Assembly (NCBI GenBank): GCA_038087875.1
Contig: CM075989.1
Coordinates: 19,904,001 to 19,968,000, forward strand
Direction of reading: 5' to 3'
DNA: 64,000 nucleotides
DNA from: Malacoraja senta
Taxonomy: Eukaryota
In this document: piece by piece, positions 5,012 to 63,810 of the stretch
Layout: each line of letters begins with the position of its first letter
Position numbering within the stretch: the first letter of the stretch is position 1
Translations under genes and position numbers: made by a program
The notes under the pieces: generated by a model
What the model was told of the DNA's origin: nothing
What the model saw: the letters and a program-made list of their open reading frames with translations, nothing else
The model's database searches: none

Positions 5012-5208
5012 AAGGTAGACAAAAAATGCTGGAGAAACTCAGCGGGTGAGGCAGCATCTATGGAGAGAAGGAATTGCCGATGTTTCGGGTCGAGACCTGA
5101 AACATCGCTAATTCCTTCTTTCCATAGATGCTGCCTCAACCGCTGAGTTTCTCCAGCATTTTTTGTCTACCTTCGATTTTCCCAGCATCTGCAGTTCTTT
5201 CTTAAACA
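5012..5208. mobile_element. Fold-back PLE terminal-repeat unit with 14-bp TSD, inserted in a SINE
   Basis: Inverted arms; taacctacaaacct duplicated at 4998-5011 and 5209-5222. Confidence 0.8.
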
Positions 5209-7751: not shown

Positions 7752-8178
7752 TGTCCCTACATGACACACTGGTCAACCTGAGGAGCACCTTCAGCAACAG
7801 ACTGGTTCCACCAAGATGCAGCACAGAACGCCACAGGAGATCCTTCTTCCCTGCGGCTGTCAAACTGAACAACTCCTCCCCCTTCTGTCGTGGGGTAGAC
7901 TGACTCTTTGCACATCCCCAATCCTGGACTTTCCACTCGTCACTTTAATTTCATGTTCCACGTATCTCCTTGTGTTTTATGACTGTTGGCAGACCAATTT
8001 CCCCCCTGGGATAAATAAAGTTCTGAAGAAGGGTCTCGACCCGAAACATCACCCATTCCTTCTCTCCAGAGATGCTGCCTGTCCCGCTGAGTTACTCCAG
8101 CATTTTGTGTCTATCATCGAATAATCCAGCATCTGCAGTTCTTTCCCACAAGTAAATAAAGCTCTATCGTAACGTATC
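7752..8178 (+). mobile_element. Rex1/Babar LINE 3' fragment with a PLE repeat inserted in its tail
   Basis: [36 protein letters not shown]; tail taaataaag(t/c)tct duplicated at 8012-8024 and 8153-8165. Confidence 0.75.
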
Positions 8179-11100
8179 ATAAATGCAACCAGTTTACTTC
8201 TCTCTATTCTGTTTCTCCTTGCCCATCTCTTCTGCTGTCCACGTATCAATTGATCCACTCCTGAGTGCCCAGCTTTCCAAATCTCTGTCCTATCAATCTT
8301 TGTCGGGTTGAACGACTGTCTGTCTATCTTTTCAAAGCTTTTGCCACGAAGATCAGCTGCCAGATTGGTGAGTGGAACAGGAGTCTCAATCTCACAACAG
8401 TACTAACTCAAATTGGTGCAACTTCACCCTTACTCTGAAGAGTTTTGCCTATCAGCTCTCCCGTTACTCAACTAATAAAAATGTTTGTACTCATTTTCTT
8501 TGCAAGCTGTTCTAACGCTGATTAAGATGGTGTTTTAACAATTCTAATGCATACACTTGAATGAGCGTTCTACCTGATTAAATGAAGCTCTCTAATTGCT
8601 ATGTTGTAGAACTTATACAATATGGAAGCAGGCCCTTCGGCCCATCGTAACCATGCTGTCAAAGTCGGCATATTGAGTCATTTGTCCCATTTGCCTGCAT
8701 TTGGCCCATAGCCCTCTAAAACCTTCGTATCCGTACATCTGCCAAAATGTCTTTCAAAAGTTTTAATTTTTGACTTTGAAATTGTCCCCAGTGTGTTAGT
8801 GTGCTTGTTAGTGTGCGGGGATCACTGGTTGGCGTGGACTCGGTGGGCCAAACGGCCTGTTTCCGCGCTACATATCCAAACTAAACTAAATATAAACATT
8901 TTACATGCAGAAGTCATGTTTAATGCAGCAGTCATAATTTAATGTTGTATGACTGTACCAAGGGTTTTGGTGGAAAGTGGAAAATGGATGCTTTTATTTT
9001 ATAACATAAAAAAATCCCTTGGAAGAGGAACAGAGAAAGAATCTTGGAGCAAGCTGGATTTGCTTTCCCAGCCATTGCACAAAACCGCCCAGGGCCTCTC
9101 AGGCTGGTAAACACTCAGCTATTTTTCCAGTGTAGATAACAGTATTCCACGTTCTGTTCATTCATTCAGCTGCAATCTGCAGCGTGGAGCTGCTCAAGCA
9201 ACCGGGGCAATGAAGCATGTTTGTGGGCTTCTGATTCTTCCAGGGGGAAGTCACACCCTCCGTGCAGCAGCTTATTTTGAAGCAAAACACCGTGAACTGT
9301 CTCTTTGAAACATTTCTGGTGCGAGAGTGACTTCTATTTTGGTTTGGGTGGGGACTGCCGTTTGGCCAAGGAGGGAAGTTCTGGGAAGAGTTGGAATGGT
9401 TCCCGTCAGACAGATTGGAAGCACTGGAAAAGAGGCCGAGGGGAGCCGACGGGATTTTTGCTCTTTGAGTGCCGGGTTATTACATTCAGGAATGTGTTGC
9501 TTAAAAGGATGTTGGAAGCAGCTCCTTTCAGGAATACCAGGGGGGGGAATGGAGAGATTTGCAGGGTTAGAATCACAGAGTCATTCAGCAAAAATGTTAG
9601 AGATTGTATTATTTGATAGACTTGTAGGAAAAGAAAGAGGCATACGGCACAGAAACAGGCCCTTCGGCCCAACTCTTCCATGCTGGGCCCTGATGTCCCA
9701 TTCATGATACTCCCGTTTACCCACATTTGGTCCACATCCCTCTCAACTTTCCCTGCCCATGAACATGTCCGAGTGTCCTTTCAATGTTGTTATTATGGGT
9801 TGTGGGGAAAGAGCAGCCACTAATTGCATGGACTTATATTGCTTATTCACACAATTAGTACAGAAACCATTTTACAATGGTCTACAATTTCAGTTGGCCA
9901 CTTCCTCGCCTGAGGTGAGCCTGCAACTCAAATAATGTAATTCCCTCAGACTTTACAGCGCAGAAACAGGCCCTTCGGCCCACCGAGTCCACGCCGACCA
10001 GCAATCACCCCCATACACTAGCACCATCCTACACACTAGGGACAATTTACAAATGTTACCAACGCCAAGTAGCCTAAAGCCTGTATGTCTTTGGAGTGTG
10101 GGAGGAAACTGGAGCACCCGGAGAAAACTCACGCAGGTCACGGGGAGAACGTACAAACTCCGTACAGACAGCACCCCTAGTCGGGATTGAACCTGGGTCT
10201 CTGGTGCTGTGAGGCAGCAACTCTACCGCTGCGCCACTGCTGGGATATTTGGTCGATGTTGTTCGAAGGGCACGGGTGATGGGACTCCCGTGAGCAATGG
10301 TGCTGGCTTGGGAGCCAAGGGCATCATGCGTTACCCTCCCGAGATAACAGAAAGCCCGGCCCTCTCCCTGCCACCAGTCCCCCTCAACGTTCCCCAACCT
10401 CAGACCAATGATAGACCAATTCGACGGCCCCTGATTCACACCAAGCATCGAGTCTCCAGCCCAAATCGCCTGACTCCCCATCTCCCCCAATAGTAGCCTG
10501 ATCTCCAACATCAAGGCTCCAAAACAATGCAAATGGCTTCATGTAGGTTCATGATACCACTGAGGTTTGGGGTGGCGATTGGTCAACCAAACTCATAATT
10601 GGCACACCATCCCATGCCCATGTGTGCCCATCAACATTTCTTCTCGGTTTCTTCCCAGCTGTTATCAGGCAACAGAACCATCCCTTCAACAACTAGAGAG
10701 CGGTCCTGAGCTTCTATCTACCTCATTGGAGACCCTCGAACTATCTCTAATCGGACTCTACTGGACTTTATCTTGCACTAAAAGTTATTCCCTCTATCAT
10801 GTATCTGTCTACCGTGGATGGTATGATTGGAATCATGTGCAGTCTTTCCACTGACTGGATAGCACGCAACAAAATGTTTTTCACTGTATACGTGACAATA
10901 AACTAAATTCAAACTGAGACGGCAATTTCCAGCACTTTAACATAGAACGTCGTACAGTACAGCACAGGAACAGGCCCTATGGCCCATAATGTCCAGACCG
11001 AGCATGTTACCAAGTTAAACTAATCTCCTCTACCTGCACATGATCCATATCCTTCCATTTTCTACATATCCATATGCCTATCCAAAAGCCTCCAAAATGC

Positions 11101-12132
11101 CACATTTGTACCAACCTCCACCACCACCTCAGGCAGCATGCTCCAGGCATTTACGACTGTGTGTAAAAAAAAACTTGCCCTGCATATCTCTTTTGAACTT
11201 TGCCCCTTTTACCTTGAAGCTCTACCCTCTAATCTTTGACATTTCCACCCTGGAAGAAAAAAGGTTCTGACTATCTACCCTCTCTATGCCTCTGATAACT
11301 TTGTACACTTGTACCAGGCCTCCCCTCAACCTCCGACGTCTTGAGAAAACAATCCAAGTTTGCCCAACTTCGTCTGATAGCTTATACCCTCCAATCAAGG
11401 GCCTTCTCCGCTATCTCATGTTTAACACAGAGAGGCCATGCGACCAGATTTCAACTACAGTCGAAGGTTAATGATACCTTTGACATATCAACAATTAGAA
11501 TGGGAATGGCAGCAATAATTGTGTCAATTACTTTTAGATTAAAAATTGCACGAATATCTTCGAGCTTGACTGATGGGAATTGAATGAACTGTATGAAGCT
11601 GTCTCGAGGGGTTGGATTGGCATTTTGGGTCGGTTTCCAGAAAGGCTTGACTTCTCATACAGCCAAGAACATTATGTGCTCGAAAGTCGGAATAATTGCC
11701 TCCCGGGACAAAGCGTACAGGAGCAATTTAAATCTGCCACGTCGCTTCCTGTGAAATGGACTTATTTCTGTGTTAATTTATCTGATCTTTCCGAGACCCA
11801 GTGTGTGTAAAGTCGGGGATGAAGGCTTCGCTCCCCCCCCCCCGTTTGATCTGAACTTGTGGCTGTGTCGATGCCTGGCTCTCGTCTCATGATCAACAAT
11901 ACGCCAAGCATGTTGACGTAGACTGTACAGCCCGTGTTGCTGGGAGGAGTTTTAGCCCAGAGAACCACAGGCCTGGTTGTTACTGCAGGAGGAACACTTT
12001 CACCTCTCACCTTGCGTCGGGCAGAGCAGACACCAGTTCCATTTCACAGCCCTCTGCAGGGGAAGTGGGACATCTGCAAGTTCTGGGAACGTTTTGGAGC
12101 AAATTCAATCTGTACAATTTACACAGAGAGTA

Positions 12133-12339
12133 TTTTAGAAAGAACTGCAGATGCTGGAAAATCGAAAGTAGACTAAAGTGCTGGAGAAACTGAGCGGGTG
12201 CAGCAGCATCTATGGAGCGAAGGAAATAGGCAACGTTTCGGGACGAAACCCGAAAGGGTTTCGGCCCGAAACGTTGCCTATTTCCTTCGCTCCATAGAAG
12301 CTGCTGCACCCGCTCAGTTTCTCCAGCACTTTTGTCTAC
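12133..12339. mobile_element. Fold-back PLE terminal-repeat unit with 14-bp TSD
   Basis: Inverted arms around 12240-12265; ttacacagagagta duplicated at 12119-12132 and 12340-12353. Confidence 0.8.
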
Positions 12340-12403
12340 TTACACAGAGAGTAGGTTGGAGAGAAAGAATGGGTGACGTTTCGGGTCGAGACCCTTCACC
12401 AGT

Positions 12404-12431
12404 CTGAAGAAGGGTCTCGACCCGAAACGTC
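12404..12431 (+). ncRNA. Minimal hammerhead ribozyme core
   Basis: CTGAAGAAGGGTCTCGACCCGAAACGTC; helix I essentially absent in this copy. Confidence 0.45.
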
Positions 12432-15403
12432 AATTATATCGCCAAGACATAACTACAGTTTGAATGCTTTAAATAATGTTGTTTAGTTTTGTTACATTGC
12501 CTCTGCCACTCTGTTCAGTTGGATGGGCATTTGAAAAGAAAAGTTTACAGGAAAGTGAGATTGCCCCGTGAGCCAGCATGGTGTAGATGGGTTAAATGGC
12601 CTCCTACGTCGTGAAAATATATGAGAACAAGATAAGGCAATGTCTCGACCTGAAACGTCACCCATTCCTTCTCCCCAGAGATGCTGCCTGTCCCGCTGAG
12701 TTACTCCAGCTTTTTGAGTCTATCTTTGGTTTAAACCAGCATCTGCAGTTCCTTCCGACACAAAGAACAGTACAGCACAGGAGTGGGCCCTTCAGCCCAC
12801 AATGTTTGTGCCAAACATGATGCCAAGTTAATGATCCATGAGGCAATGGGAACATGGGAGTACGTTGTAATACGAAGGACATTTACAGTCACGCTATTTT
12901 AGTTTGTAGAATAAAAAGACTTATGTCAGGTTCACCAAGTTAATTGCCGGGATGGCGGGACTGACATATGATGAAAGAATGGATCGACTGGGCTTATATT
13001 CACTGGACAGGCTTAATGCAGGAAAAATGTTCCCGATGTTGGGAGAGTGCAGAACCAGGGGTCACAGTTTAAGAATAAGGGGTAGGCCATTTAGGACTGA
13101 GATGAGGAAATACTTTTTCACCCAAAGAGTTGTGAATCTGTGGAATTCTCTGCCATAGAAGGCAGTGGAGGCCAAGTCACTGGATGGTTTCAAGAGAGAG
13201 TTGGATATAGCTCTTAGGGCTAATGGAACCAAGGGATATGGGGGAAAAGCAGGAACGGGGTACTGATTCTGGATGATCAGCCGTGATCATATTAAATGGC
13301 GGTGCTGGCACTAAGGGCCGAATGGCCTACTCCTGCACCTTTTTTCTATGTTTCTATGTAATAAAGATGTGAAACTCTCAAGCTCATCTGATTCATTAGG
13401 AAAACCACAATTCGGTTAATTACTTTGGATTAAAACATTGGTAGGGAATTTGAGGGAGAATAACTAGCCACCACTAATTACATCACCTGCTGTTGTATTT
13501 TGAAGACAGGCACAAAAAGCTGACGTAACTCAGAAGGGTCTTGACCCGAAACGTCACCTATCCCTTTTCTCCAGAGGTGTTGCCTGACCCGCTGAGTTAC
13601 TCCAGCTTATTGTGTTTATTCGCGGTTTAAACCAGCATCTGCACTTCCTTCCCACACACTTGTATTGAGGAGGGTTTTTTTCACATTAGTCTCCAAAGCA
13701 AGAGTATGTAAAATTGCAATGTAACTGCAGTACTAATGATTCTATTTGACATTGGAACCAAAATCTCTGCAGGTGCTGGAAATTCAAAATAAAGCAAAAA
13801 ATTGTTTTAAAGAGCAAAAACCGTGAGGGGATTATATAAGGTGAATGCATCGTGATTTTCCTGGGATTTGTGATTCAAGAACTTGAAGGCATTGGTTTAA
13901 AGTGAGAGGGGGACGATTTAATAGGAACCTGAGGGACAACATTTTCACGCAGAGAATGGTGGGTATGTGGAACGAGCTGCCAGAGGAAGTAGGCAGGTAA
14001 AATTACAGCATTTAAAAGACATTTGGACAAGTATTTGGACAGAAAAGGATTAAAGGGATATAGGCCAAACGCGGATAAATGGGACTAGTTTAGATGGGGC
14101 ATCTTGATCTGCATGGACAAGTTGGGATGAAGGACCTGTTTCCATGCTGTAAGAATATGACACATTGTAGAAAGGGTGCAATTGCTCTGGAGAGGATCCA
14201 GGGGCGATTTATGAAGATGTTGGCAGGGCTGGAATTTTTATTTCACTTTGAAGAAAGATTTGATAACTGGGATTGTATTCTCCGCAGCAACGGAGGTGAA
14301 GAGATGACTTAGTTGAGGTGAATAATGTTAGGAGAATAGGACCTGTTTCGCGTTACAAAGTGTGTCGGACGGAACTGCAGATGCTGGTTTAAACTGAAGA
14401 TAGACGCAAAAAGCTGGAGTAACAGCGGGACAGGCAGCATCTCTGGAGAGAAAGAATAGGTGATGTTTCGGGTCGACTGAAGAGGTTGAAAACCAGCCAT
14501 ATAGATGTAAAACACAATGACTGGAGATGTGTGTCATCCAACTAAGGGCAGAAATCAGAATCATGTGTTCATCTTTATTGACGTGACACCATAATAAATA
14601 TATTATAGAAAAAAGAATTTAATGGGGTGGCATGGCGGCGCAGCGGTAGAGTTGCTGTCCTACGGCACTTTGATCCTGACTATGGGTGCTGTCAGTACAG
14701 AATTCGTACAGACCACATGGGTTTTCTCCGGATTTTCTCCCACATCCCAAGACCGTGCAGGTTTGTAGGTTAATTGGCTTCTGTAAATTGTCCCTGTAAA
14801 TTGCGTGTAGGATAGAACTGGTGTATGGTAGATTGCTGGTCGGTGTGGACTTGGTGGGCCGAAGGGCCTGTTTCCACGCTGTGTCTCTCTAATGACTGGT
14901 CCCTTATTTTCCAGCTCTGTCCCCATATTGTGGACTCAACATCTACCCTTTCAAGTAGGTAGAAAGGAACTGCAGATGCTGGTTTATACCAAAAATAGAC
15001 ACAAAGTCCAGGAGTAACTCAGCGGGTCAGACAGCATCTCTGGAGAAAATGGATATGTGACGTTTTGGGTTGGGACCCTTCTTCAAACTGATTGTGGTGG
15101 GGGTGGGGGGGGCAACTGGAAGCAAGAAAAATAAACAAATCTCTTTATATCCCTTTACGGTGGGTATACAGAAGGAAAGCTGGGATTTGGGTAGATGACT
15201 AATTGACAGTCATCTCAATCTCAGTGGGCTGTTGTACTGTCTAACTCTACATGTGACTCAAGTGTGTTAGAAATACACGTTTGGAAACAATGTGGCTTCT
15301 ATTGGTAGTAGGCCAAGTTCCTTGTAATTGTATGATCTCTTTATGCCAGTTGTTTGCCGTCTGAGTTTGTACATTTTACATTTAATTCTGTTTTCACTTC
15401 CAG

Positions 15404-15462
15404 AGGAGGAGAGGCGAGTGATAGCCAACAACCGTGAATACAATGAAAAGTTTGAGTACGCT
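15404..15462 (+). CDS. ATP8B4: ATP8B exon, 59 nt: (E)[19 protein letters not shown]
   Basis: ttttcacttccag acceptor, gtaagt donor; matches the ATP8B N-terminal ANxREYNEKFxYA motif. Confidence 0.9.
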
Positions 15463-18400: not shown

Positions 18401-21400
18401 CGGGGCTATTTTTTTTACTCGTGGACATTTTTCAACATGTTGAAAAAACGTCCTGACTTACCTGATGCCCCGAGTTCCAACGGCTGGCATTACGAGCCGC
18501 TACGAAATATCTACGGACTCCTACGGACTCTTACGAGCTCGCTACCGACATTCCCCGAGTTCGAATAAAGGGGAAAAGGCGGGAGAGTTCGTGAGTAACC
18601 CGGGAAAGTGGGACAGGGCCTTAACTCCCTCTCTCCTGACGCTCAGTCTGAAGAAGGGTCTGGACCCGAAACGTCATCCAATCCTATCCAGAGATACTGC
18701 CTGTCCCACTGAGTTACTCCAGTATTTTGTGTCTATTTACATTTTTACAAACTGTTTACATAACTGCTCTATGAGTAAAAATCATGTTTATCATTAGTTG
18801 GAAAATGCAGCTATAACAGTCAATTATATTTAAATATCATTGAATTATTTGCTTTTATCCTTTTTCAGAGTAACCGCATCAAGACCTCAAAATACAACGT
18901 TATCACATTTCTGCCTATTAACCTGTTCGAGCAGTTCCAGCGGGTCGCCAATGCATACTTCTTGTTCCTGTTGCTCTTACAGGTTGGTACATTTTTGGAC
19001 AAGTGTGGCATGCATCGCCTTCCTGTTGCTAATGGATATTCCAGGCCTTGTCGCACACTTCTTCAGTAGCAAGAGATGCATTGTCTTTCCACTGACTGGT
19101 TAGCACGCAACAACAGCTTTTCACTGTACCTCAGTACACCTGACAATAAACTAAACTAAACTAAACTAACAGGTTGTTCGAAGGAAGGTATTTAACGTCC
19201 TTTATTGAATTTCAGTAGAGGCCCTTCAGGATGATCGAAAGTGTGTGTGTGTGCGTGTGTACAGTGGCTTGCAAAAGTTTTCATACCCCTTGAACTTTTC
19301 CACATTTTGCAACGTTACAACCACAAACGTAAATGTATTTTATTGGGATTTTATGTGATAGACCAACACAAAGTGGTGCATAATTGTGAAGTGGAAGGAA
19401 AATGATACATGGTTTTCAAATTTTTTTACAAATAAAAAACTGAAAAGTGTGGCGTGCAAAAGTATTCAGCCCCCCTGAGTCAATACTTTGCTGCAATTAC
19501 AGCTGCAAGTCTTTTGGGGTATGTCGCTACCAGCTTTGCACATCTAGAGACTGAAATATTTGCCCAATCTTCTTTGCAAAATAGCTCAAGCTCAGTCAGA
19601 TTGGATGGAGAGCGTCTGTGAACAGCAATTTTCAAGTCTTGCCAGAGATTCTCAATTGGATTTAGGTCTGGACTTTGACTGGGCCATTCTAACACATGAA
19701 TATGCTTTGATCTAAACCATTCCATTGTAGCTCTGGCTGTATGTTTAGGGTCGTTGTCCTGCTGGAAGGTGAACCTCCGCCCCAGTCTCAAGTCTTTTGC
19801 AGACTCTAACAGGTTTTCTTCCAAGATTGCCCTGTATTTGGCTCCATCCATCTTCCCATTAACTCTGACCAGCTTCCCTGTCCCTGCTGAAGAAAAGCAT
19901 CCCCACAGCATGATGCTGCCACCACCATGTTTCACAGTGGGGATGGTGTGTTCAGGGTGATGTGCAGTGTTAGTTTTCCGCCACACATAGCGTTTTGCAT
20001 TTAGGCCAAAAACTTCAATTTTGGTCTCATCTGACCAGAGCACCTTCCTCCACATGTTTGCTGTGTCCCCCACATGGCTTGTGGCAAACTGCAAACGGGA
20101 CTTCTTATGGCTTTTTTTCAACAATGGCTTTCTTCTTGCCACTCTTCCATAAAGGCCCGATTTGTGGAGTGCACGACTAATAGTTGTCCTGTGGACAGAT
20201 TCTCCCACCTGAGCTGTGGATCTCTGCAGCTCCTCCAGAGTTACCATGGGCCTCTTGGCTGCTTCTCTGATCAATGCTCTCCTTGCCCGGCCTGTCCGTT
20301 TAGGTGGACGGCCATATCTTGGTAGGTTTGCAATTGTGCCATACTCTTTCCATTTTCGGATGATGGATTGAACAGTGCTCCGTGAGATGTTCAAAGCTTG
20401 GGATATTTTTTTATAACCTAACCCTGCTTTAAACTTCTCCACAACTTTATCCCTGACCTGTCTGGTGTGTTCCTTGGGCTTCATGATGCTGTTTGTTCAC
20501 TAATGTTCTCTAACAAACCTCTGAGGCCTTCACAGAACAGCTGTATTTATACTGAGATTAGATTACACATAAGTGGACTCTATTTACTAATTAGGTGACT
20601 TCTGAAGGCAATTGGTTGCACTGGATTTTATTTAGGGGTATCAGAGTAAAGGGGGCTGAATACTTTTGCATGCCACACTTTTCAGTTTTTTATTTGTAAA
20701 AAAATTTGAAAACCATGTATCATTTTCCTTCCACTTCACAATTATGCGCCACTTTGTGTTGGTCTATCACATAAAATCCCAATAAAATACATTTACGTTT
20801 GTAGTTGTAACGTGACAAAATGTGTAAAAGTTCAAGGGGTATGAAAACTTTTGCAAGCCACTGTATATGTGCGTGCGAGTGCGTATGTGTGTGTGCGTGC
20901 ATGTGCGCGTGCGTGTGTGTGTGTGCGCGAGTGCATGTGTGTGTGTTGGTCTGTGTTGATGTGTGCGTGCATGTGCGAGTGCGTGTGTGTGTGTGCATGT
21001 GTGTGTGTCTACGTGTGTATGTGTGCGTGCGACTGAGTGTGTATGTGCATGCGAGTGTGAGTGTGTGTGTGCAATTGCGTGTGCATGCGTGTGTGTCTAA
21101 TTACATGTGCATGTGTGTGCGAATGTGTGCGTGTGTGTGGAGGTTTGGAGTGGGGGGTACGTAATAAAGGGTAGAGGTGGGCAAGGAGTGGGGACGATCT
21201 ACCAAGGAGAGGCAAGATCAAGAGATATTTTAATTTAGTTTATTATTGTCACGTGTATCGAGGTACGCTGGAGAGATGTAATGGGTGACATTTTGGGTCT
21301 GAAGAAGGGTCTCGACATGAAATGTCACCCATTCCTTCTCTCCAGACATGTTTTCTGTCATGCTGAGTTACTCCAGTATTTTGTGTCTAACTTCGGTGAA

Positions 21401-24400
21401 AACGTTTTTGTTGCGTGCTATCCAGTCAGCGAAAAGACTATATGTGATTACAATCAAGCCACCCACAGTGTACAGATACGGGATATAGGGAACAGATTGG
21501 TATAAAGGGAACTTAAATTTTAATATGCCATAAAACAATGTTATTTACTTTACCTATTCACATTTGGTGGATGGCACGGTGGCGCAGCGGTAAAGTTGCT
21601 GCCTTACAGCGCTTGCAGCACCGGAGACCCGGGTTTGATCCCGACTACGGGCGTTGTCTGTATGGAGTTTTACGTTCTCCCCGTGACCACGTGGGTTTTC
21701 TCCGAGATCTTCGGTTTCCTCCCACACTCCAAAGACGTACAGGTTTGTAGGTTAATTGACTTGGTATAAGTGTAAATTGTCCCTAGTGTGTGTAGAATAG
21801 TATTAATGTGCGGGGATCACTGGTCAGTGCGGACTCGGTGGGCCAAAGGGCCTGTTTATGCGCTGTATCTCTAAACTAAACTATACCTAATTTGAATTAC
21901 AGTATTATTCATATTTCTATCTTGGAAATGATTGAATTAACGGCTATAAATGTAATACATTTTGTAAGAATATATTTGTGAATTGTTCAACATAATCTTC
22001 ACTGTGTAAATCTGATTATTTCTCTCTCTAGTTAATCCCGCATATCTCCTCGCTTTCCTGGTTCACCACGATAGTGCCTTTAGTATTGGTGTTAACAATC
22101 ACAGCGGTTAAAGATGCCACAGATGACTATGTGAGTACCAGTACAATTCTGGCTTGTGAGAGGGACAGGAATACTAATTTGTATCTGATGTTAGAGGCAA
22201 GGTCTTGGGCACCATCTCTGAGAACTCCAGAGCCAGCCATTTCGGTTCATAACTTCATCCCTGGCTGAGATTGTTTGTTGACATGAATTACAGCAAACTC
22301 TATAAGGGCGGCATGGTGGCGCAGCGGTAGAGTTGCTGCCTTACTGCGAATGCAGCGCCGGAGACCCTGTTTTGATCCTGACTACAGGTGGAGTTTGAAC
22401 GTTCTCCCCGTGATCTGCTTGGTTTTACTCCAAGATCTTCGGTTTCCTCCCACACTCCAAAGACGTACAGGTTTGTGGGTTAATTGGCTTGGTAAATGTA
22501 AACATTGTCCCTAGTGGGTGCAGGATAGTGTTAATGTGTGGGGATCGCTGGTCGGCGCGGACTCGGTGGACCGAAGGGCCTGTTTCCGTGCTGTATCTCT
22601 AAACTAAACGAAACTAAACACAAAGTGCTGGAGTAAGATAGATACAAAGTGCTGGAGTAACTCAGCAGTTCAGGCAGCATCTCTGGTGAACATGGATAGG
22701 TGACATTTCGGGTTGGAACCCTTCATTAGTCTGGAGAAGGGTCCCGACCTGAAACGTCGCTTATCCACATTCTCCACGGATGCTGCCCGATCCGCTGAGT
22801 TACTCTAGCACTTCATGTCTATCTTTGGTATAAACCAGCATCTGCAGTTTCTTGTTGTTACAAAATGCTGGAGTAACTCAGCAGGTCAGGCAGCATCCCC
22901 GGAGAACATGGATAGGTGACGTTTTGAGTCAGGACCCCTCTTCAGACTGATTGCAGGGGCGGGGAGGAGGGGTGGGGAGGGAGGTGGGGAGCATGGCAGG
23001 TCATAGGTGACAATGGAAGAGGGGGAGTTGAGAGGCAGAATCCCCCCCACCCAACCCCCCCCCCTTCCTTTGATCACCTATGACCTTTCATGCTTTGTCC
23101 TGCCCTTCCATTCTTCTAGTTTGCCCATCCCCCAAAACCCTTCCAATCTGCTTAAAGCTGGGTAGCGACCCAAAACGTCACCTATCCATGTTCTTCAGGG
23201 ATGCTGCCTGACCCGTTGAGTTACTCCAGCATTTTGTGTCTTTCCTTGGTAAACCAGCATCAGCAGTTCCTTGGTTCTTCAGCAAACTCTTCTATTTTGA
23301 AGATCCTTACTTTTGTGTTACCTCATCCAGATTAGATAGTTTACTCTATTTCCCATGCAGGGCATCTGACTGAGTGACTCCAACATCTCATAGCTTCATG
23401 ATAAATGTCAGTGAATCAGTTATTTGTGGCGTTTAAATGGAGCTAGGTTTGTAGACATACATACACGTTTAATTTAGTGTAGTTTGGAGATACAGGCCCT
23501 TCAGCCCACTGAATATGTGCAGACCCGTTCTATCTTAATAATAATAATAATAATAGATTTTATTTTAAGGGCGCCTAATACCGAGGTCTCTAGGACACCT
23601 TACAATTTAAGAAACATATAAACATATAAACATATAATCAGAGTAAAACAAGTTATAAAGACATCACAAATACACAAATTAAAAACAGAAATTCGATCCA
23701 AAAAAAGACAACAAAATTCAGAAAACACAACATGAAGGGAGAGCAGCGGCAGCCAAACCGCGCCAGCGTACACTCTCCTTCCGCCCGCCATGTTGGACAT
23801 AGACTAACACAGACACTAGGGGCAATTTACAGGGGCCAATTAACCTACAAACCTGCACGTCTTCGGGATGTGGGAAGAAACCGGAGCACCCGGAGGAAAC
23901 CCACGCGGTCACAGGGAGAACGTGCAAACTCCACACAGACAGCACCCGAGATCAGGCTGGAACTAGGGTCTCTGGCGCTGTGAGGCAGCAACTCTTACCG
24001 CTGTGCTGCCGCAATGAGGAAGCGATTAGCAGATTTAATACACACTAAGCACTGTGTTTTTTTTTGGCAAGTCATAATTTTCCGTTCCATTTTAGTGTAC
24101 TTCTGTAAATATTTCTGAGGTGGAGCTGGCCAAATGTTCAGAACCCCAGCTTCCCAGGAGATGGGCTGAGGACTATCTTTAAGCTTTAACTCTGGTTTAG
24201 GAGGTCACAACAACATCATAAATATAAGCCATGGTTGGCCACATGACCTCTTAGACGGACCCAACTATTAAAAGGGATCATTGTTGATCTGATCATAACC
24301 GCAGCTCCACCTTCATATCTGTGTGCTGCAACCCAATAAGCTCAACAAACTTACTCTTGATTTATTGAAAGATACAGCATGGAAATACCTTGACCCTTCG

Positions 24401-51400: not shown

Positions 51401-54400
51401 GGCAAGGAAACAAATCTTATCAGTCGAAGACCCAAAACATTGAACAGAGTGTGTTACATTCCACACTCCAGTACACACACTGAACTTTCATTCTCATTTG
51501 TTATATTGTTCACAGAGTACTATGTTTACATCGAAGATAGGCACAAAAAGCTGGAGTAACTCAGTGGGACAGGCAGCATCTCTGGAGAGAAGGAATGGGT
51601 GACGTTTTGGGTCGAGGCCTTTCTTCAGACTAGTTATGGATAAGGGAAATGGGAGATATTGATGATGATGTAGAGAGACAAAGAACAATGAATGAAAGAC
51701 ATGCAAAAAGTGACGATGTTAAAGGAAACAGGCCATTGTTAGCTGTTACATATTCTGTTGTGCTGCTGAAGTTCATTGTTTATGACAATAAAACACTCTT
51801 GTCTCTTGACTTGTCACCAATCTGAAGAAAAGTCACAACTTGAAACGTCATCGGTCTATTCCATCCGAGCCGAGTTCAATTTAACTTTATCGGCCTTCAA
51901 TGCTACAGTATTTATTTAAACTAAAAGTTGTGTCCTATATCCTTTAGCTTTCCACTGTGGATGGCTTGATAGTAATGTATAGTCTTTTTGAGTGTACAGC
52001 ATGCAAAGAAAATCTTTCCACTATATCTTGTGCACGTGACAATAATAGACAAACTAAACATTAGTCGAGCACTTTGTATTTTATGCCACCTGTTATATTC
52101 ATAAATTCATAAGTTCATAAGTGATATGAGCAGAATTAGACCATTCAACCCATCAAGTCTACTCCGCCATTCAATCATGGCTGATCTATCTCTCCCTCCT
52201 AATCCCATTCTCCTGCCTCTCCCCATAACCCCTGACACCCGTACTAATCAAGAATCTATCTAGCTCTGCCTTAAAAAATTACCCATTGACTTGGCCTCCA
52301 CATACTTCTGTGGCAATGTATTCCACAGACTCACCACCCTCTGACTAAAGAAATTCCTCCTCATCTCCTTCCGAAAGGAACGTCCTTTAATTATGGAGTA
52401 CTATCTGTGTGTGTGACTTTGTTTCCCAGAAACCAGGCCCATATTTTGTGATGGCTAGTTTTGTTCATTGTATTTAAAGAACAGATGCAAACTGTTCCAA
52501 TTTCTGGAGCAGTTATGTTGTTGAGGTGTGCTTTGTGCATTTTATTCTCGTAGAAAATAAAGAGTGAAAAATGTAATCCCGATTGGAATGCATATCGCTT
52601 AATATGCAGACCCAAAAAGTGATGATGTTGGGGACAAGGCAGGTGGTGCTGTGTTGTTACTGACAAAAAAATTAATCATGTGTTAAAAGAATGAAAGGAA
52701 TAAACTTTCATAAGTTTGTAAGTAATAGGAGCAGAATTAGGCCATCGAAGTCTACTCTCCATTCAATCATGGCTGATCTATCTCTCCTTCCTAACCCATT
52801 CTCCTCCCCACAGCCCCCGACTTTGCTAGGATGATGCTAGGATTGTCCAGACTGTTTTAACATTGCAGCTGTATAACGTGTATGAAACGCAAACTGCTGG
52901 ATTAATTTATCGGGTCACGACGTTTCTGGTCGGGACCCTTCTTCAGACTGAGGAATGGTTCCGTCCCGAAGCGTCATCTATCTATGTCCTCCACATATGC
53001 TGTCTGAGTTAATCCAGCACTTTGTGTTTTACTCAAGATTCCAGCACCTGCAGTTCGGAAAGAACAAAGGAGGACCCGGTGTGTGGGGGCCGCCGTGAGG
53101 GAGGGGGAGGGGTAGGGGGGAGAACGGGCGGGGGGAGGGGGGGGATTTGTAGCTTTGTCCACGCCCTTTATGTGGCAACTATTTGCATACCTTTTTTATG
53201 CGAGCAAAGAATTTCACTGTGACTTGTCCCATGTGACAATAAAGTATTCAATTCCTTGTGTCTCCTGTATAACTTGCACATATTTTAACTGACTGGATGG
53301 CACACAAACCAATGCTTTTCACTGCACCTCGGTCCACATGACAATAGTACGCCAATACTGTTGGGTGGGTTTTGTGCGTTGTACTGATGCAGTTCTTGTC
53401 TCATTTTTGCGGCAGGCGAGATCATTTGCGAGCCACCCAACAACAAACTGGACAAATTCACCGGGACTCTGTTTTGGAAAGACAAGAAGTATTCACTTAA
53501 TAATGAAAAGATGCTTCTTCGAAGCTGCGTTCTGCGGAACACAGGATGGTGCTTTGGTCTGGTTATCTTTGCAGGTAAATTCTTCTTATTCCTCTTAAAT
53601 AAAGCTACTAATGGTACAAGTGCTTGGTGTTATGCTGGGTTTCTGGAGCGTTGAGGTGTTCTATAGTTATAGAGTCACACAGCACGAAAACAGGCCCTTC
53701 AGCCCAACTTGTCTATACCGACCAAGATGCTCCATCCAAGATAGTATCACCTGCCCTCGTTTGGCTCATGTTCAAAAGTTCACATTATAGTAGAACTCGG
53801 CCCATCGAATCCACTCCGACATTCAATCATGGCTGATCTCTGCATCCTAATCCCATTCTCCTGCCTTCTCCCCATAACCCTTCACACCCGTTCGAATCAA
53901 GAATTTGTCTATCTCTGCCTTAGAAATAACCACTGACTTGGCCTCCACAGCCCTCTGTGGCAATGAGTTCCACAGATTAACTACCCTCTGACTAAAGAAG
54001 TTCCTCCTCACCTCCTTTCTAAAAGAGTGCCCTTTAATTCTGAGGCTATGACCTCTGGTCTTTGACTCTCTCACCAGTGGGAACATCCTCCCCACATCCA
54101 CTCTATCTATGCCTTTCATTATTCTGTAAGTTTCAATGAGGTCCCCCCTCAACCTTCTAAACTCCAGCGAGTACAGGCCCAGTGCTGTCAAACGCTCATC
54201 ATACGCTTCTAAACTTTTCCTATCCATGTACCTGTCCAAATGTCTAAAATGTTGTTATTGTACCTGCCTCAATTACCTCCTCTGGCAGCTTGTTCCATAC
54301 ACTCACCAACTACTGTGTGAAAAAGTTGCCCCTCCGGTTCCTTTTAAATCTTTCTCCTCATCTTAAACCTGTGTCCTCTGTTTATTGATTCCCCAACCTG

Positions 54401-57400
54401 GGTAAAAGACTGATAATAGGGGTTATGTGCAGGCAGATTTAATTAGTTGAACTTGGCATCATATTCGGCCGAATGGCCTTGTGGGCCGAATGGCCTTTCC
54501 TGGACTGTACTATTGTCTGTTCTGTGGCACCATTGCTTATGTTGGCTTGGCATGTGGCGCTTTATTAGAGTCAGAGGAAGTTGCAGCACGGCCACATGCC
54601 CTTCAGCCACCGTGTCCACACCAACCATCAAGCATCCAGTTTTACACTAATCCCACATATGCCCCTTTCATTCCCCTCACATTCCCACCAAACCCTCCCC
54701 AAATTGTACAAACTCACTGGGGACAATCTGCAGCATCTACTTAACCAACCAACCACTGCATTTTTTCCGGAGCACCTCGGGAAATTCCAGTTCATACGTT
54801 CTAGGAGCAGAATTTCGGGCGGTCACGGTGGCGCAGCAGTAGAGTTGCTGCCTTGCAGCGAATGCAGCGCCGGAGACCCGGGTTCGATCCCGACTACGGG
54901 TGCTTGTCTATACGGAGTTTGTACGTTCTCCCCGTGATCTGCGTGGGTTTTCTCCGAGATCTTCGGTTTCCTCCCACACTGCAAAGACGTACAGGTTGTA
55001 GGTTAATTGGCTTGGTAAAAATGTAAAAAGAAATTCTCCCTAGTGGATGTAGGATGGTGTTAATGTGCAGGGATCGCTGGTCGTCGCAGACCCGATGGGC
55101 CGAAGGGCCTGTTTCCGCGCTGTATTTCTAAACTAAACTAAACTAATTAGGCCATTCGGCCCATCGAGTCTACTCCGCCATTCAATCATGGCTGATCTAT
55201 CTTTTCCTCGCAACCCCTTTCTCCTGCCTTCTCCCCATAACCCGTGACTGTTGGTAGCTCAACATCACACTCGAGAATCTACTTGAGATAAAACTTAAGC
55301 ATCGGGAGAACTCAAAGCCTTCTGACTCATGTAGGTCCCATGGTAAATCTACCAACTAATCCTGATCGCCATCAACACTGACAGTAGCACTTTCCAGCAT
55401 TGGCTAAATCTGTTGAAATGGTGAAGGAAGCGGTCTACCTACCAATAGTATGGAGTGGTACACAAAGTGCTGGAGTAACTCAGCGGATCAGGCAGCAACT
55501 CAGTCTGAAGAAGGGTCTCGACCCGAAACGTCACCCATTCCTTCTATCCAGAGATGCTGCCTGTCCCGCTGAGTTACTTCAGCATTTTATGTCTATCTCG
55601 GTGTAAAGCAGCATCTGCAGTTCCTTCCTACACATCTCCGGAGGACGGATTGGTGCTGATTCGGGTCGGGACCCTTGGAGTATTTCCATCGTCTTGGAAA
55701 GCCATCCATCCATGTGATTTGACCCCTCCCCCTTCATTTTCATACAGAATGTGGTAGATAATGGAATGAGCTGCTGACGCAATAACAATATATAAAACAA
55801 ATTTGGGCAGATGCATGGATAGGAAAGGTTGAAAGGGATATGGGCCAAATACAGGCAAATAGTACGAGCATAGATGGGGCATCTTGGTTAGACTTTACTG
55901 ACACAGCGTGGAAACAGGCCCTTCGGCCCACCGAGTCCGGGCCGACCTGCAATCACACTGTACACTTGCAATATCATACACAAGGGATAATTTACAATTT
56001 TACTGACGCCAATTAACCTACAAACCTGCACGTCTTTGGAGTGTGGGAGGAAACCGGAGCACCCGGAGAAAAACCCGCGGTCACAAGGAGAATGAGCAAA
56101 CGCCGTACAGACAGCGCCCGTAGCCAGGATCGACCCCAGTTCCCTGGCCCTGTAAGGCAGCAACTCTACCGCTGCACCACTGTGCCGCCCAGAATGAATT
56201 GGTGGAAGGGCCTGTTTCCATGTGTGTGACTCTAGGGTGATATCCTTGTTTTCTAGGACCTGATACCAAGCTAATGCAGAACAGTGGACATACCAAATTG
56301 AAACGAACAAGTATTGACCGTCTGATGAATACCTTGGTCCTGTGGGTAAGTAGATAACATCCTGTGAAAATTTCAATCTTGTCACCGAGGGCAACCAAGA
56401 AAATTCTGTTCAATAAAAGGTCTGTCTCACGAATCTGCGGTCATTGGCGGCGAAACGGGAAGAATCTGCCGCCATAGACCGCGCACTCATGAGAAAGAAC
56501 AATTCCCGGGCCGTGCGACGGTGTTCCCAACACCGCGCGGTGCAAAAATAAAATCGACAATGTCGAAAACTCTATACTCACCGCACAACCTCCACCAGTG
56601 ATGCACGAGTGCGCACGGCCGCTCGCACGGGCCGCCGCCAGTGTGGGTCGAGCGCCGTGCGTCAAACCTCCTCTGCCACAGCCTCCGCCAGTGACGCACG
56701 TGCCGCCGCCAGTGAGGCACGTGTGCTGCGCGGCCACAGGCACAGCCATCGCTACAGCGCCGCGATCAGGATGGCCGCCGCCACAGCCGCCGCTGGTGAG
56801 TCACGTGCGGGGGGCCGACGTCATCGCAGTCGGCCCGCCCTTTTTTTACTTACCGCAAGCACGTGGGACCCGCCGTGTTTGAATTAACTCGGCCCCCGCG
56901 CAACATCCGTGCGGCGCTCCGGTGGATAGGCTCGACGCTCTCGCCGTTGCCGCGCGGTCCTAGCTACCGGCGACACCGCGCTTCACCGCCGATGACCGCA
57001 AACAGGTAAGACACGGCCTTTAGTTTACGCTAGAGGCAGGAAACATGTTCCCGATGTTGGGGGAGTCCAGAACCAGGGACAACAGTTTAACAATAAGGGC
57101 TAAGCCATTTAGAACGGAGAGGAGGAAACACGTTTTCACACAGAGTTGTGAGTCTGTGGAATTCTCTGCCTCAAAGGGCGGTGGAGGCCGGTTCTCTGGA
57201 TACTTTTAAGAGAGAGCTAGATAGGGCTCTTGTAGATAGCGGAGTCAGGGGATATGGGGAGAAGGCAGGAACTGGGTACTGATTGGGGATGATCAGCCAT
57301 GATCACATTGAATGGTGGTGCTGGCTTGAAGGGCCAAATGGCCTACTCCTGCACCTATTGTCTATTGTCTAAGTGCATATATTCGAGGAGTGGAATCGGA

Positions 57401-60400
57401 CCGTTTGGCTTTTATCTTTCCTCACTGACAACAATAATTTTCTCCTCAGATCTTCGGCTTTCTCATCTGCATGGGAACCATTTTAGGAATTGGAAATTCC
57501 ATATGGGAAACCGAAGTTGGAATTTACTTCCGCTGCTACCTGCCCTGGGACGAATGGATGAAAAGCCCCATTTTTTCCGGATTTCTAAGTTTCTGGTCAT
57601 ACATAATTATCCTTAACACAGTTGTGCCAATTTCGCTTTATGTCAGGTAAGCAAGCCAGTGTTCTCAATTGAATCGTTTTATTGAGCCTTCCGCATATTC
57701 CTTATTTTCATATTAAAATATGTTAACAATAGTATTATTTCCCAGAAACATCCATGCAAATTTGAAAAAAAACCTGTGGTATTCATCAGCCATCTTGTTA
57801 ACTTGATCCATTAGAGTTAAAGAGACCTACAGTTGTACAGCAACAAGACAGGCCCTTCGGCCCGACTTGTCCATGCTGACCTAGTTGACCAACTGAGCTA
57901 GACCTACTTGCCTGCATTTGACCCAACTCTCTCTCTAAAGGCAGGTTGCCAAAAAATTTCAAAATGTTGAAAATCCAGCGGCGACCAGAAAAGGGTACGA
58001 CTCTTTGGGCGACTACACACGACCATGCAGACATCACGTGTTGACATGTCGCGGGACATCAAGTCTACTCCGCCATTCACTCATGGCTGATCTATCTCTC
58101 TCTCCTAACCCCATTCACCCGCCTTCTCCCCATAACCTCTGACACCCGTACTTATCAAGAATCTTTCTGTCTCTGCCTAAAAAATATCCTTGGCCTCCAC
58201 TGCCGATGTGGCAATGAATTCCACAGATTCACCACCCTCTGACTAAAGAAATTCCTCCTCATCTCCATTCTACTGTGTGGCTTGAGTGTGAAACAATGCA
58301 CAGAAATGCGTGTATGTCTTACAAGCTAACACTTGATATATAGGCAAGTGTGTTTAGATGAAGATTTTAATTTGATTCTTTCTTTGATATTGATTCCTTG
58401 AAGCAACATATGGACATATCTGTTATATCTCCAGTCACTTATGTTACAAGCAAACATAACCCTTCATTCTTCATTAAGTGTTACTTTAGATTTTATTTTT
58501 TAATGGTTGACATTAAACATTAACTTCACTGCTGTTTGTGTGGTGATAATTTAAATTCAAGTTTGATAATTTAAATTCAGTCTGAAGGAGGGTCCTGACC
58601 CAAAACGTTGCCTATTCCTTCTCTCCATAGATGCTGCCTCACCCGCTGAGTTTCTCCAGCATTTTGTCTAGCATCTGCAGTTCTTTCTTAAACATTTAAA
58701 TTCAAAATGTATTTTGATGTGCTGCTTTGTTACTTTTTTTAATTGTAGCTCCCTGTCAATTTTTTTGAAACTAGTATCGAAACTATGACCTTAATTTCCT
58801 TTTGATTTTTGTCTTCATTTAAGCGTTGAAGTCATCAGACTTGGACATAGTTACTTCATAAACTGGGATCGGAAGATGTACTTTGCACCGAAAAATACTT
58901 CAGCTGAGGCGCGGACCACAACTCTTAATGAGGAGCTGGGACAAATAGAATACATCTTTTCAGACAAAACAGGAACACTGACACAGAATATCATGATTTT
59001 CAACAAATGCTCAATAAATGGGAAAGCCTATGGTAAGCTGTTGGTGAGGCTGCACTTGGAGTATTGTTGCTCGGTTCTGGTCATCCTGCTGTGGGAAAAG
59101 CGCCATTAAGCTGGAAAGAGTCCAGCACTTTGTGCAAAACCTGTCCAGGCTCTCCTCATATCTCAAGCCCTCCCTGTCCCAGCCACATCCCTGCATTGGG
59201 GATGTTGCCCGGACACGGGGACCTGAGCTGTCGGGAGAGGTCGGGCAGGCGAGGATTTTCTTGGAGCGCAGGAGGCTGAGGAGTGATTTTGTATAATTGT
59301 GAGGGAAATCGATAGGATGAATGCAGGACTTCTCCCCCAGAGTAGGGGAATCAAGAGCTAGGCGACATCAGCTTAAGGTGAGGGGGGGGGGGGGAAGATT
59401 TAATAGGAATCTGTGGGGCAATTTTATCACTCAGAGGGTGGTGGTTACTTGGAACAAGTTGTCAGAGGAGGTAATCAAGGCAGGTGCAATAACAACATTT
59501 AAAAGACATTTGGACAGGTGCATGGATAGGAAATGTTTAACGGGATGTTTAAACAGTTAACAGTTCAGTTTATTGTCATGTGTACCGAGTTACGGTGAGA
59601 AGCTTTCATAGCGTGCTATCCGGTCAGCAGAAAGACAACACATGATAATAATCGCGGCCTCAAACATGGGCGAACGTAGGCGTAGATAGGGCACTCTTTG
59701 TCCTTCTGGTCCTTGATTCCCCTGTACAATATTGTACAGTATATACACATGAACAGTGCTTTTATTGTGACGGCACAGTTCACCAGCACCTCAAAAAGAT
59801 TAAAATCTAGATTTTCACATTTATAGATATTTTAATATTACAACGGCGCAGGGGTAGAGTTTTTCCTTACAGCGCCAAGAGACCCAGCTTCGATCCTGAC
59901 CACGGATGCTGTCTGTGTGGAGTTTGTACGGTCTCCCTGTGACCGCGTGGGTTTTCTCTGGGTGCTCCGGTTTCCCCCCCCCCACACTCCAAAGATGTAC
60001 AGATTTGTAGGTTAATTGACTTTGGTAAAAAGTGTAAACTGTGCCTAGTGTGTCAGATAGCACTAGTGAATAAGGTGATCGCTGGTTGGTGCGGACTCGG
60101 TGGGCCGAAGGGCCTGTTTTTCGCGCTGTATCTCTAAAGTCTCAAAATAAAGAAAGATTACCAAAGTTTAAAATATAACATTTATGAATTAAATTAGGCG
60201 GTCATGCCTTTGAGCAGCTTTTCGTTTGGCAATCTGCCAAGGAACATTATGTGGCAGGTTTTAGTCTACATAAAAACCAGTGCTTCTGAGGACAACTTGT
60301 TATCACGCTGTTCCCATCTGCACTTTAATTTTTATCATGTGGGACTGAGCGCCAACTGGTGGAGGATAAAGGTAGAACATGCACTTATCCAGACTACATC

Positions 60401-61021: not shown

Positions 61022-63604
61022 GTAGGACTCCAGTAAAGAAAATACTTGTGGAATCATTTGAATGCATAGCTGATACGATTTTATATATATTTTTCTAAAT
61101 TGAGATGTGCGGGATTGTCATTCGATTATCTGTCGTGTGTGATGAAAAGTATCGTTTATAGTCTTCGCTCTGTCCCAACCAAAACCCCACATTTTCTTGT
61201 TCGTTTTTCACACCCTCACATTTGTACAAATACTGATTAACCCCAAGCCACAACCAAGATTTTAGCTTGGTTTAGTTTAGTTTTAGAAATACAGCGTGGA
61301 AACAGGCCCTTCGGCCCACCTGGGTCTGCGCCGACCAGCGATCCCCGCACATTAACACCATCCTACACACACTAGGGACAATTTTTACATTTACCAGGCC
61401 AATTAACCTACAAACCTGTACGTCTTTGGAGTGTGGGAGGAAACCGATCTCGGAGAAAACCCACGCAGGTCACGGGGAGAGCGTGCAAACTCCGTACAGA
61501 CAGCACCCGTAGTCGGGATCGAACCCGGGTCTCCGGCGCTGCATTCGCTGTGAGGCAGCAACTCTACCACTGTGCCACTGCGACTGCCAGACAGCAAAGG
61601 CCATAATCCATTTATGAATGAGCAAAAATTGGACTGAGTATCTTCTGCAGAAATCCATGATGGTCAAATGAGGCAACAAATTGCTCTTCCCTTAAATTAT
61701 TTTTTCTGCAGTTTCTTTAGTCAGAGAGTGATGAATCTGTGGAATTCATTGCCACGGAAGGCTGTGGAGGCAATAGATATTTTTAAAGCAGAGATTGATA
61801 GATTCTTTATTAGCACGGCCTCACAACGCCAAGGTTCGATCCTGACCTTGGGTGCTTAGATACATAGATACATAGAAAATAGGTTCAGGAGTAGGCCATT
61901 CGGCCCTTCGAGCCTGCACCGCCATTCAATATGATCATGGCTGAACATCCAACTCAGTATCCCGTACCTGCCTTCTCTCCATACCCCCTGATCCCTTTAG
62001 CCACAAGGGCCACATCTAACTCCCTCTTAAATATAGCCAATGAACTGGCCTCAACTACCCTCTGTGGCAGAGAGTTCCAGAGATTCACCACTCTCTGTGT
62101 GAAAAAGTTTTTCCTCATTACTGTTACTGTTGAGTTAGTACGTTTTCCCTGTGACCATGTGGGTTTCCTCTGGGTTCTCAGGTTTCCCCTCCACATCCAA
62201 ATTACATGCAGGTTTGTAGATTAATTGGCCTGCTGTGTAGATGAGTGGCAGAACTGGAGGGCGAGGGAGAGATGATAACAGTATGAATAGAATAAAGTTG
62301 GATTAGATATGTGTAACATTATTGTGAATGGGCGATTGATGGCCAGTGTGGACTCGTGGGACAAAGGGCCTGTTTCCATGCTGTATATCCATGCTCTGAA
62401 AAAGATTTTGCATCAGTGCAGGTGCGATAACCAACTTTTACCAACTGACCACAAAATCAATGCCAATTTGTGCACTTTGATATGTCATTTGATTGATATG
62501 ATTTTAGGTCAGAGGAATGTTAATTGAACAGTGATCCTAATACCTTTGGGGGTTTAGTTAATATTCATAATTCAGGAAACACTGCCTCCTAGAGGAAGCA
62601 TTTACTATTACAGAAATTATGACGGAAGTGTTGGTAACTTTGTTTAATGTTAACGAAAACAATATAAGAAAGATAAATAGACCAACAAAACAGTGTACTA
62701 CATAGAATAGCTTTTGTTGCTGAATGAGGTCTGGTTATTCTTGATTAGTATGGGTGTCAGGGGTTATGAGGGGAAGGCAGGGGAATGGGGTTAGGAGGGA
62801 GAGATAGATCAGCTATGATTGAATGGTGGAGTAGACTTAATGGGCCAAATGGGCTGAAAATGGGCCGAATGGCCTAATTCTGCTCCGATCACCGTGACAC
62901 AAATATTAATAAAATGTCAACGGCTCAAAGTACTTTATTGTCACATGTACCTAAGAACAGTGAAATTCCTTTTTTGTATAAAGTTTAGTAAAAATCTTAC
63001 TATACATGGGCACAATGTACAAGAGTCATAGAATGTAGTTTAGTTTAGTTTAGTTTAGAGATACAGCGCGGAAAGAGGCCCTTCGGCCCGTCGAGTCCGC
63101 ACCAACCAGCAATCCCGCACATGAACACACTAGGGACAATTTTACATTTATACCGAGCCAATTAACCTACACACCTGTACGGCTTTGGAGTGTGGAAGGA
63201 AACCGAAGATCTCAGAGAAAACCCACGTAGGTCACGGGGAGAATGTACAAACTCCGTACAGACAGCAGCCGTTGTCAGGATCGAACCCGGGTCTCTTGCA
63301 CTGTAAAGCAGCAACTCTACCACTGCGCCACCGTGCCGCTGAAGGAATAGTAGATTACACTGACACGTTAGACAAGAGTCGCCACATTTCCGGTGCCATT
63401 TTGTATGATTGAAGTCCAAAGTTGTTAAAAATGTTGAATCTTTAACTTGGCCTACAATTTAGACATTTGTTGTCTCAGCAAATGTCTAAATTGTACAAAC
63501 TAATTATTGCTAGAAATTTGCACAAATTCAATTTGTAACAGCTCGGGTAACAATGATGGATGGGCAACATTTGTTGAAATAATTAAAGCATATTAAATGT
63601 GCTG

Positions 63605-63810
63605 AAGATAAACACAAAATGCTGGGGTAACTCAGCGGGACAGGCAGCATCTCTGGAGAGAAGGAATTGGTGACGGCTTGGGTCGAGACCCTTCTTCAGA
63701 CCTGAAAAGTCACCCATTCCTTCTCTCTAGAGATGCTGCCTGTCCCACTAAGTTACTCCAGCATTTAGTGTCTATCTTCGGTTTAAACCAGCATCTGCAG
63801 TTCCTTCCTA
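63605..63810. mobile_element. Fold-back PLE terminal-repeat unit with about 16-bp TSD
   Basis: Inverted arms; catat(t/c)aaatgtgctg at 63589-63604 and 63811-63826. Confidence 0.75.

Follow-up and report, generated by a model that had tools for sequence, protein, structure and literature searches.

A Penelope-like pseudo-long terminal repeat with a minimal hammerhead in a skate genome, probably copied from uncut, capped RNA

What does a hammerhead motif do when it recurs on both strands in and around a single host gene? The window considered here is a stretch of 64,000 nucleotides from Malacoraja senta (contig CM075989.1, positions 19,904,001 to 19,968,000). A first-pass annotation had proposed that it holds a high-copy terminal repeat of a Penelope-like element (PLE), that a minimal hammerhead in this repeat processes the RNA of the element, and that many sense copies lie inside the pre-mRNA of an ATP8B gene. 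We consider it likely that the repeat is the pseudo-long terminal repeat (pseudo-LTR) of a PLE carrying a hammerhead of a known minimal type, whose short copies, or stubs, were copied from uncut, capped RNA starting at the A that precedes the core by three bases (-3) and are now decaying neutrally.

The exact 28-nt motif is present on the forward strand at 12404, 18648, 25343, 29712, 30820 and 55505, with variants at 8023, 29206, 44000 and 44381, and minus-strand copies have their C3 at 22945, 46299, 51628 and 63699, all in agreement with the annotation. G12 is lost in three of the four minus-strand copies and the helix III palindrome in the 8023 copy. The motif forms the head of a repeat of ~135 nt. 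A profile of this repeat, built from nine window copies, gave 50 matches in the window, 395 in a genome sample of 100 evenly spaced 10-kb stretches (1 Mb) and none in a shuffled Mb control, which scales to a load of ~0.75 million repeat pieces in 1.94 Gb, an extrapolation from large contigs only. The density in the window (7.8 per 10 kb, vs 3.95 in the sample) is equalled in 13 of the 100 sampled stretches. As an exact pattern, the 28 bases from AGT to the end of GAAAC occur 34,000 times in the genome. A minimal-hammerhead descriptor picked out 7 window sites and 32 sites of the sampled Mb, all within the ~135-nt repeat, and none in each of five shuffles; the scan of the window and sampled stretches returned no second minimal-hammerhead family.

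The identity of the parent element is given by its coding copies. When the remnant at 27887-28051 was used as a genome query, 61,931 first-look candidates were obtained, of which 150 were scored; the endonuclease remnant also has homologues in Leucoraja erinacea. All 20 long genome copies fetched end in the ~135-nt repeat. In the genome copy L031, an open reading frame (ORF) at 3213-5528 of 771 codons contains RVT_1 (E 1.6e-4) and GIY-YIG (E 2.4e-3), both below the Pfam curated cut-offs; it has 2090 homologues at E<=1e-20, with reverse transcriptase (RT) and related domains among the top matches, and the hammerhead lies ~95 nt past its stop codon. A CX4CxxC linker precedes GIY-YIG in its translation, which fits the CX2-5CxxC of Neptune/Nematis-type PLEs. 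The endonuclease-bearing (EN+) Neptune and Nematis elements described by Craig et al (bioRxiv 2021.04.23.441226) likewise have a CX4CxxC linker before a C-terminal GIY-YIG, and share with the present element partial tandems, an inverted truncated partner and a one-ended tail of 30-40 bp. The apparent likeness of the L031 frame to this type draws on linker and architecture. On the minus strand of a further copy, L032, a truncated 3' end is followed by a full repeat with tail and then by the start of the next coding region; this is a partial tandem, by which the ~135-nt repeat qualifies as a pseudo-LTR at this one locus. A Pfam search of three short window remnants gave no match, and their identity is taken from the longer genome copies. 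Coding copies, tandem and motif thus bear out the proposal of a minimal hammerhead in the pseudo-LTR of an elasmobranch PLE. The further claim that the motif lies just downstream of GIY-YIG remnants holds for the copies at 28224, 29206 and 44381 (sense, within 600 nt, by tblastn) and for that at 44000, which is linked to the PLE by its 3' untranslated region (UTR) and a 10-residue ORF tail, and fails for all six exact copies. Genome-wide, most sampled copies are stubs, since a GIY-YIG remnant stands within 600 nt upstream in only 27 of 209 that bear the core.

The motif itself is already known in kind. Minimal type I hammerheads were described in the PLE pseudo-LTRs of many metazoans by Cervera and De la Pena (2014, PMC4209133), with a consensus of CUGANGA plus one extra base, G10.1-C11.1, GAAA, a palindromic two-base helix III stub, UH and a short helix I. 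Several of their rows share CUGAAGAA and GAAA-CG-UC ends with the present motif, and rows such as Culex, Takifugu and a cichlid match it. Compared with that consensus, the descriptor and the subfamily consensus both contain the core CUGANGA(H), GAAA, UH and G10.1-C11.1, and the palindromic 15.1-16.1 stub, ACGU, is found in all main subfamilies, where it permits a dimer helix III. Helix I has 2 bp in 30 of the 32 descriptor matches, as it has in the Culex, D. virilis and Oikopleura rows of PMC4209133. The additional A and short helix I pointed out in the annotation are therefore both real, although neither is peculiar, being regular in the published PLE motifs. Its helix II, drawn with a two-base loop of TC, TG or CC, cannot form; the stem has 4 bp, at the short end of the published range, and a 4-nt loop. 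As here, the hammerheads of PMC4209133 are sited 3' of the RT-EN frame and occur mostly as solo copies with some close opposite-strand pairs, and the 34,000 exact pattern matches stand against 4,000-9,000 copies given for coelacanth and Xenopus. The 56 rows of its Fig. S3 include no cartilaginous fish; the Takifugu and Tetraodon rows of that figure have the CUGA core repeated in short inverted form directly upstream, resembling TCAG-T-CTGA here. Among the 47 matches of an Rfam scan of the window at E<=5 there was no hammerhead, as is expected because the motif lacks helix III; inverted pairs gave nothing but hairpin look-alikes. A variant with a longer helix I, known from other rays, has no exact match here.

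If the ribozyme shaped the copies, their ends should be sought at the cut site, and this is not where they lie. Only 3 of 289 unpaired copies start there (profile columns 34-39), without any pile-up, and 3' ends within one base of C17 occur in 3 of 210 copies (5 rows, 2 misaligned ones set aside), which is no excess; the idea that processing left its mark on the copies consequently finds no support at either end. A slight excess of paired arms with starts in columns 34-39 (10 of 156) was considered as a sign of cleavage and rejected, as it is accounted for by microhomology at the ACGT palindrome and unpaired copies show no such preference. In the window, the 12404 copy (+) ends one base past GTC, and a copy at 52946 (-) also stops no more than a base from the predicted cut; genome-wide, ends of this kind show no enrichment. 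The 5' hot spot lies instead just before the core: among 185 unpaired copies that keep its 5' edge, 114 have unrelated upstream sequence, and the consensus fades from -1 to -6 before C3 (352 of 601 matches anchored). The 3' ends fall into two groups, about 55-70 and 95-105 nt beyond the cut site, with preferred ends ~35 nt apart. Both are seen at the reference solo stub with tail (29709-29841, +; core 29712-29739, predicted cut after 29739), with its short 3' end near 29806 and its tail end near 29841; among the matches listed, the best-supported loose ends are 29710, 29806-7, 29834 and 29841 (contigs of 4 runs with 4 other organism labels).

Head-to-head pairs comprise 156 of 445 pieces. Of 79 pairings scored, two loci entering twice, 14 were set aside because one arm is very short; exactly one arm is tailed in 51 of the 65 informative pairs, vs 32.5 expected (p=4e-6). 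Flank words of at least 8 nt match in 30 of 78 pairs vs 12 of 390 mismatched controls. The head-to-head units are single insertion events of the known PLE type, often with target-site duplications. Their junction is centred on a TCAG-T-CTGA palindrome in 14 of the 79 pairs and on a second palindrome (helix II/GAAAC) in 4.

The bases at the 5' edge suggest what kind of RNA was copied. Before the AGT-core, exact counts genome-wide at -4 are C 27390, G 2666, A 2173 and T 1771; at -5, G (717) is rarer than A (1389), which gives an odds ratio of 2.4 for G vs A at -4 relative to -5. Neither flanks nor mutation explain this excess of G, because the flanks are rich in A/T and mutation of C leads mostly to T. 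In unpaired copies with unrelated upstream sequence that keep AGT and have lost the preceding C, the base is G in 11 of 22 (p=0.009, one of four tests), and G at -4 is found in none of 106 long copies. Target duplications were checked at 80 sites on one contig (the first 40 G, 20 A and 20 T listed, with two duplicated pairs): duplications of at least 8 nt were found at 14 unpaired sites, at 10 of which they abut the junction, and the base stands outside the duplication in 4 of 6 cases for G and 0 of 4 for A/T, a small difference that goes the way a copied cap would predict. The sequence TCAGT resembles the initiator (Inr) consensus. An Inr-like TCACT is present in a rotifer pseudo-LTR (PMC3846280) and an Inr in Drosophila Penelope, and capping accounts for the additional G at the 5' junctions of full-length L1 insertions (PMC11702581). 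By analogy, the extra G at many insertion edges suggests that these copies were made from capped, uncut RNA beginning three bases before the motif. Such a start at the -3 A would also account for the very short helix I. In an incomplete literature search, no report of a cap-derived G at PLE junctions was found.

It could be argued that the hot spot arises later, at the stage of complementary DNA (cDNA), with RT stalling or self-priming at TCAG-T-CTGA and nearby hairpins and no transcription start there. The junctions centred on the two palindromes and the spread of ends across several bases are in keeping with this, and self-priming at palindromes has been proposed for rotifer PLEs (PMC3846280). 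Nevertheless, a G excess limited to -4 would not follow from this explanation, since fold-back copying would restore the consensus C, and the hot spot is common to unpaired stubs with unrelated flanks; we regard it as rather unlikely.

We propose that the element's protein starts reverse transcription internally, at one or the other 3' site of the RNA, a mode demonstrated for an Anolis element, and that RT would copy about 100-135 nt up to the RNA 5' end, where it may often add a C opposite the cap, giving rise to the extra G. Two cDNAs joined at their 3' ends would yield a head-to-head unit. The ribozyme would likely cleave rarely, as a dimer formed through the 4-nt ACGU palindrome with the help of protein, in RNA from tandem master copies, and intronic stubs would likely be inert. 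The Anolis element, Poseidon (Frangieh et al, 2024, PMC11167929), offers a close parallel: its PLE tail pattern is tied to two internal priming sites, its template is uncut RNA, and protein is required for cleavage. Both elements have two 3' ends that define the tail and no ends at the cleavage site. They differ in that the start codon of Poseidon overlaps the hammerhead, so that priming is within the ORF, whereas both 3' ends here precede the likely start codon, and in that cleavage has been demonstrated for Poseidon, whereas it is predicted from sequence here.

Several points weigh against copying from a capped RNA with a start at -3. The breakpoints are spread over 0 to -6 rather than set at a single base, and the TCAG-T-CTGA palindrome could itself halt or redirect RT. 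G precedes only ~8% of AGT copies, addition of C by RT at blunt cDNA ends may occur with uncapped RNA too, and the duplication check comprises 10 first-listed sites on one contig and is not significant. The Penelope of D. virilis has its start at a more upstream position, 46 bp ahead of an intron that ends right at the hammerhead. As covariation is wanting (see below), the fold draws on likeness to the published motif and on one-sided wobble changes, and RNA start, cap and cleavage are predictions from genomic copies. A bolder extension of the same idea would be a capped, A-initiated (TCAGT) mRNA tipped by the hammerhead, with just three bases left for helix I, in which cleavage gated by dimer formation and protein removes a 31-nt capped leader; this would act as a self-decapping switch sensing the RNA or protein level of the element, with only uncut, capped RNA inserted and the cap-derived G preserved in thousands of junctions. 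We hold this switch to be speculative and doubtful.

Clustering of 291 near-complete copies among the 601 matches, based on the bases downstream of the cut, gave three main subfamilies, about 7, 10 and 16-18% diverged. Within the motif, only C17/U17, two loop bases and the U-A or U-G pairs of helices I and II set them apart; these differences at tolerated positions fit, if weakly, with constraint on the master copies. Inserted copies, in contrast, decay neutrally. G12, which lies within a CpG, is changed in 29% of copies, vs 16-26% at other CpG sites, and all core bases are kept in 103 of 224 core-spanning copies. Non-CpG core positions show 5.1% mismatch vs 9.8% downstream, in copies that were chosen for alignment over the core, and the gap shrinks when bases are matched and only subfamily-fixed columns are used. 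Selection on the core of inserted copies was accordingly rejected, given the selected alignments, the shrinking gap and a decay of G12 like that of other CpG sites. Core conservation among genomic copies, put forward as a test in the first-pass annotation, is the wrong test, because dead copies decay neutrally whatever the master ribozyme does. The covariation analysis proposed alongside it gave nothing above shuffles, 354 of 500 of which reach the score (120/173 copies, chosen for motif match); between subfamilies there are only one-sided wobble changes in the stems, the copies being too closely related and decaying.

Folding is likewise unfavourable. For the five window copies folded, the hammerhead dimer has ~-6 kcal/mol vs -17 to -72 for the best cofolds, the helix II probability is at most 0.03 in a 130-nt context in 5/5, and most single-strand folds have the core paired with pyrimidines that lie downstream of it in a stretch. 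Together with a helix I of only 2 bp, a helix II of only 4 bp and the lack of covariation, this could mean that the motif is a catalytically dead relic here, kept as a promoter or protein-binding sequence. It is hard to see, however, why three main subfamilies of different age would then keep every core position and differ at tolerated ones, and a 2-bp helix I is also found in published PLE motifs (PMC4209133). A dead relic therefore seems to us an improbable reading, if one to be kept in mind.

The scarcity of upstream GIY-YIG remnants raises the question of whether the stubs form a separate non-autonomous family, a short interspersed element (SINE) or a retrozyme, with short masters of its own. 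Non-LTR retrozymes are non-coding, hammerhead-bearing and PLE-derived (PMC7229834; bioRxiv 10.64898/2026.07.22.740005), and in the latter account animal retrozymes derive from pseudo-LTRs, one chondrichthyan genome being included. By definition they form head-to-tail tandem arrays, whereas the window stubs are dispersed singles or head-to-head pairs; head-to-tail units are absent among the window copies, which have only a few short duplications, in a search that left arrays elsewhere in the genome aside. Moreover, subfamily letters are common to stubs and coding copies, the 5' edges of stubs are variable rather than fixed, and the stubs show the one-tail pattern of PLE insertions, dispersed and with no tandem arrays in the stretches examined. 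A separate family thus appears distinctly unlikely, and it overlaps with the explanation that we prefer, as short transcripts reading through from any pseudo-LTR promoter would look alike.

The weakest proposal, that the ribozyme routinely processes the RNA of the element and that sense intronic copies can cut a host pre-mRNA such as that of ATP8B, could appeal to the confinement of subfamily differences to tolerated positions, to the 103 copies with every core base and to the 7/7 descriptor sites of the window that are sense to the host gene, but we judge it very improbable, as the cut site shows no excess of ends, rival folds are far more stable, published monomers are uncleaved and dimers or multimers poorly cleaved (PMC4209133), and sense copies are not depleted. 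The host gene is an ATP8B-type P4-ATPase gene (18869-59028, +; best match ATP8B1 structures, E 6e-26), with exons near 18870, 22040, 30990, 53420, 57600 and 58843-59028, the edges being approximate. Unpaired repeat copies within it number 12 sense vs 7 antisense (p=0.36), and the sense orientation of all descriptor sites is the opposite of what would be expected under selection against host cleavage. With this non-significant strand bias and the dimer fold given above, the suggestion that sense copies act on the pre-mRNA is not supported, and cleavage of ATP8B pre-mRNA would appear to be unsupported by the genomic data.

The present case extends PLE minimal hammerheads to a skate genome at very high copy number. 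An incomplete literature search brought up no account of hammerheads in cartilaginous-fish PLEs, and elasmobranch examples may exist. The in vivo role of PLE hammerheads is still debated, and the tens of thousands of junctions indicate insertion of uncut RNA. [quoted passage not shown]

The remaining window copies illustrate the range of insertion products. Forward-strand stubs lie at 30817-30945 (an older subfamily, intact core 30820-30847), 18641-18745 (intact core 18648-18675) and 8017-8146 (solo, core 8023, helix III palindrome broken). On the minus strand, the stub at 46181-46299 has an intact core and starts exactly at C3 (46299), and those at 22844-22952 and 51524-51635 are decayed, with G12 changed. 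Three units are head-to-head: 55460-55629, with an intact core at 55505-55532 in the forward arm and a short inverted arm at 55460-55505; 25214-25451, with an intact core at 25343-25370 in the forward arm and a tailed minus arm that lacks the 5' core; and 63599-63809, with a broken core (63699-63672) in the minus arm and a tailed forward arm. A short palindromic unit centred on CAG-T-CTG occupies 12357-12432 (forward core 12404-12431). Forward-strand copies attached to coding sequence comprise three 5'-truncated PLEs, at 27887-28346 (C-terminal GIY-YIG remnant 27887-28051, 3' UTR and a pseudo-LTR with G12 changed at 28224), 28905-29273 (last ORF codons, a 3' UTR of a second family and core 29206) and 43847-44092 (last 10 ORF residues, 3' UTR and core 44000), and a GIY-YIG remnant followed by a stub at 44094-44504 (core 44381).

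Other repeats accompany the PLE. A ~381-bp insertion in the PLE coding region of L031 (1798-2178) has at least 39 copies at 98-100% identity elsewhere (3319 candidates) and represents a very young family of retroposons with short tandem repeats at its end. Within the ATP8B region, inverted arms of 222 nt at 19260-19481 and 20644-20865, 96% complementary and 1162 nt apart, may mark an intronic fold-back element or young DNA transposon. Long low-complexity, short-period tandem arrays at 6843-7660 and 20844-21139 are mutually related on opposite strands. A reading frame at 34462-34680 (-) is a candidate fragment of the endonuclease domain of a long interspersed element (LINE). Finally, SINE-like families are abundant on both strands (for example 1575-1858, 2822-3089, 10042-10247 and 63049-63341) and presumably resemble the HE1 SINE of elasmobranchs.

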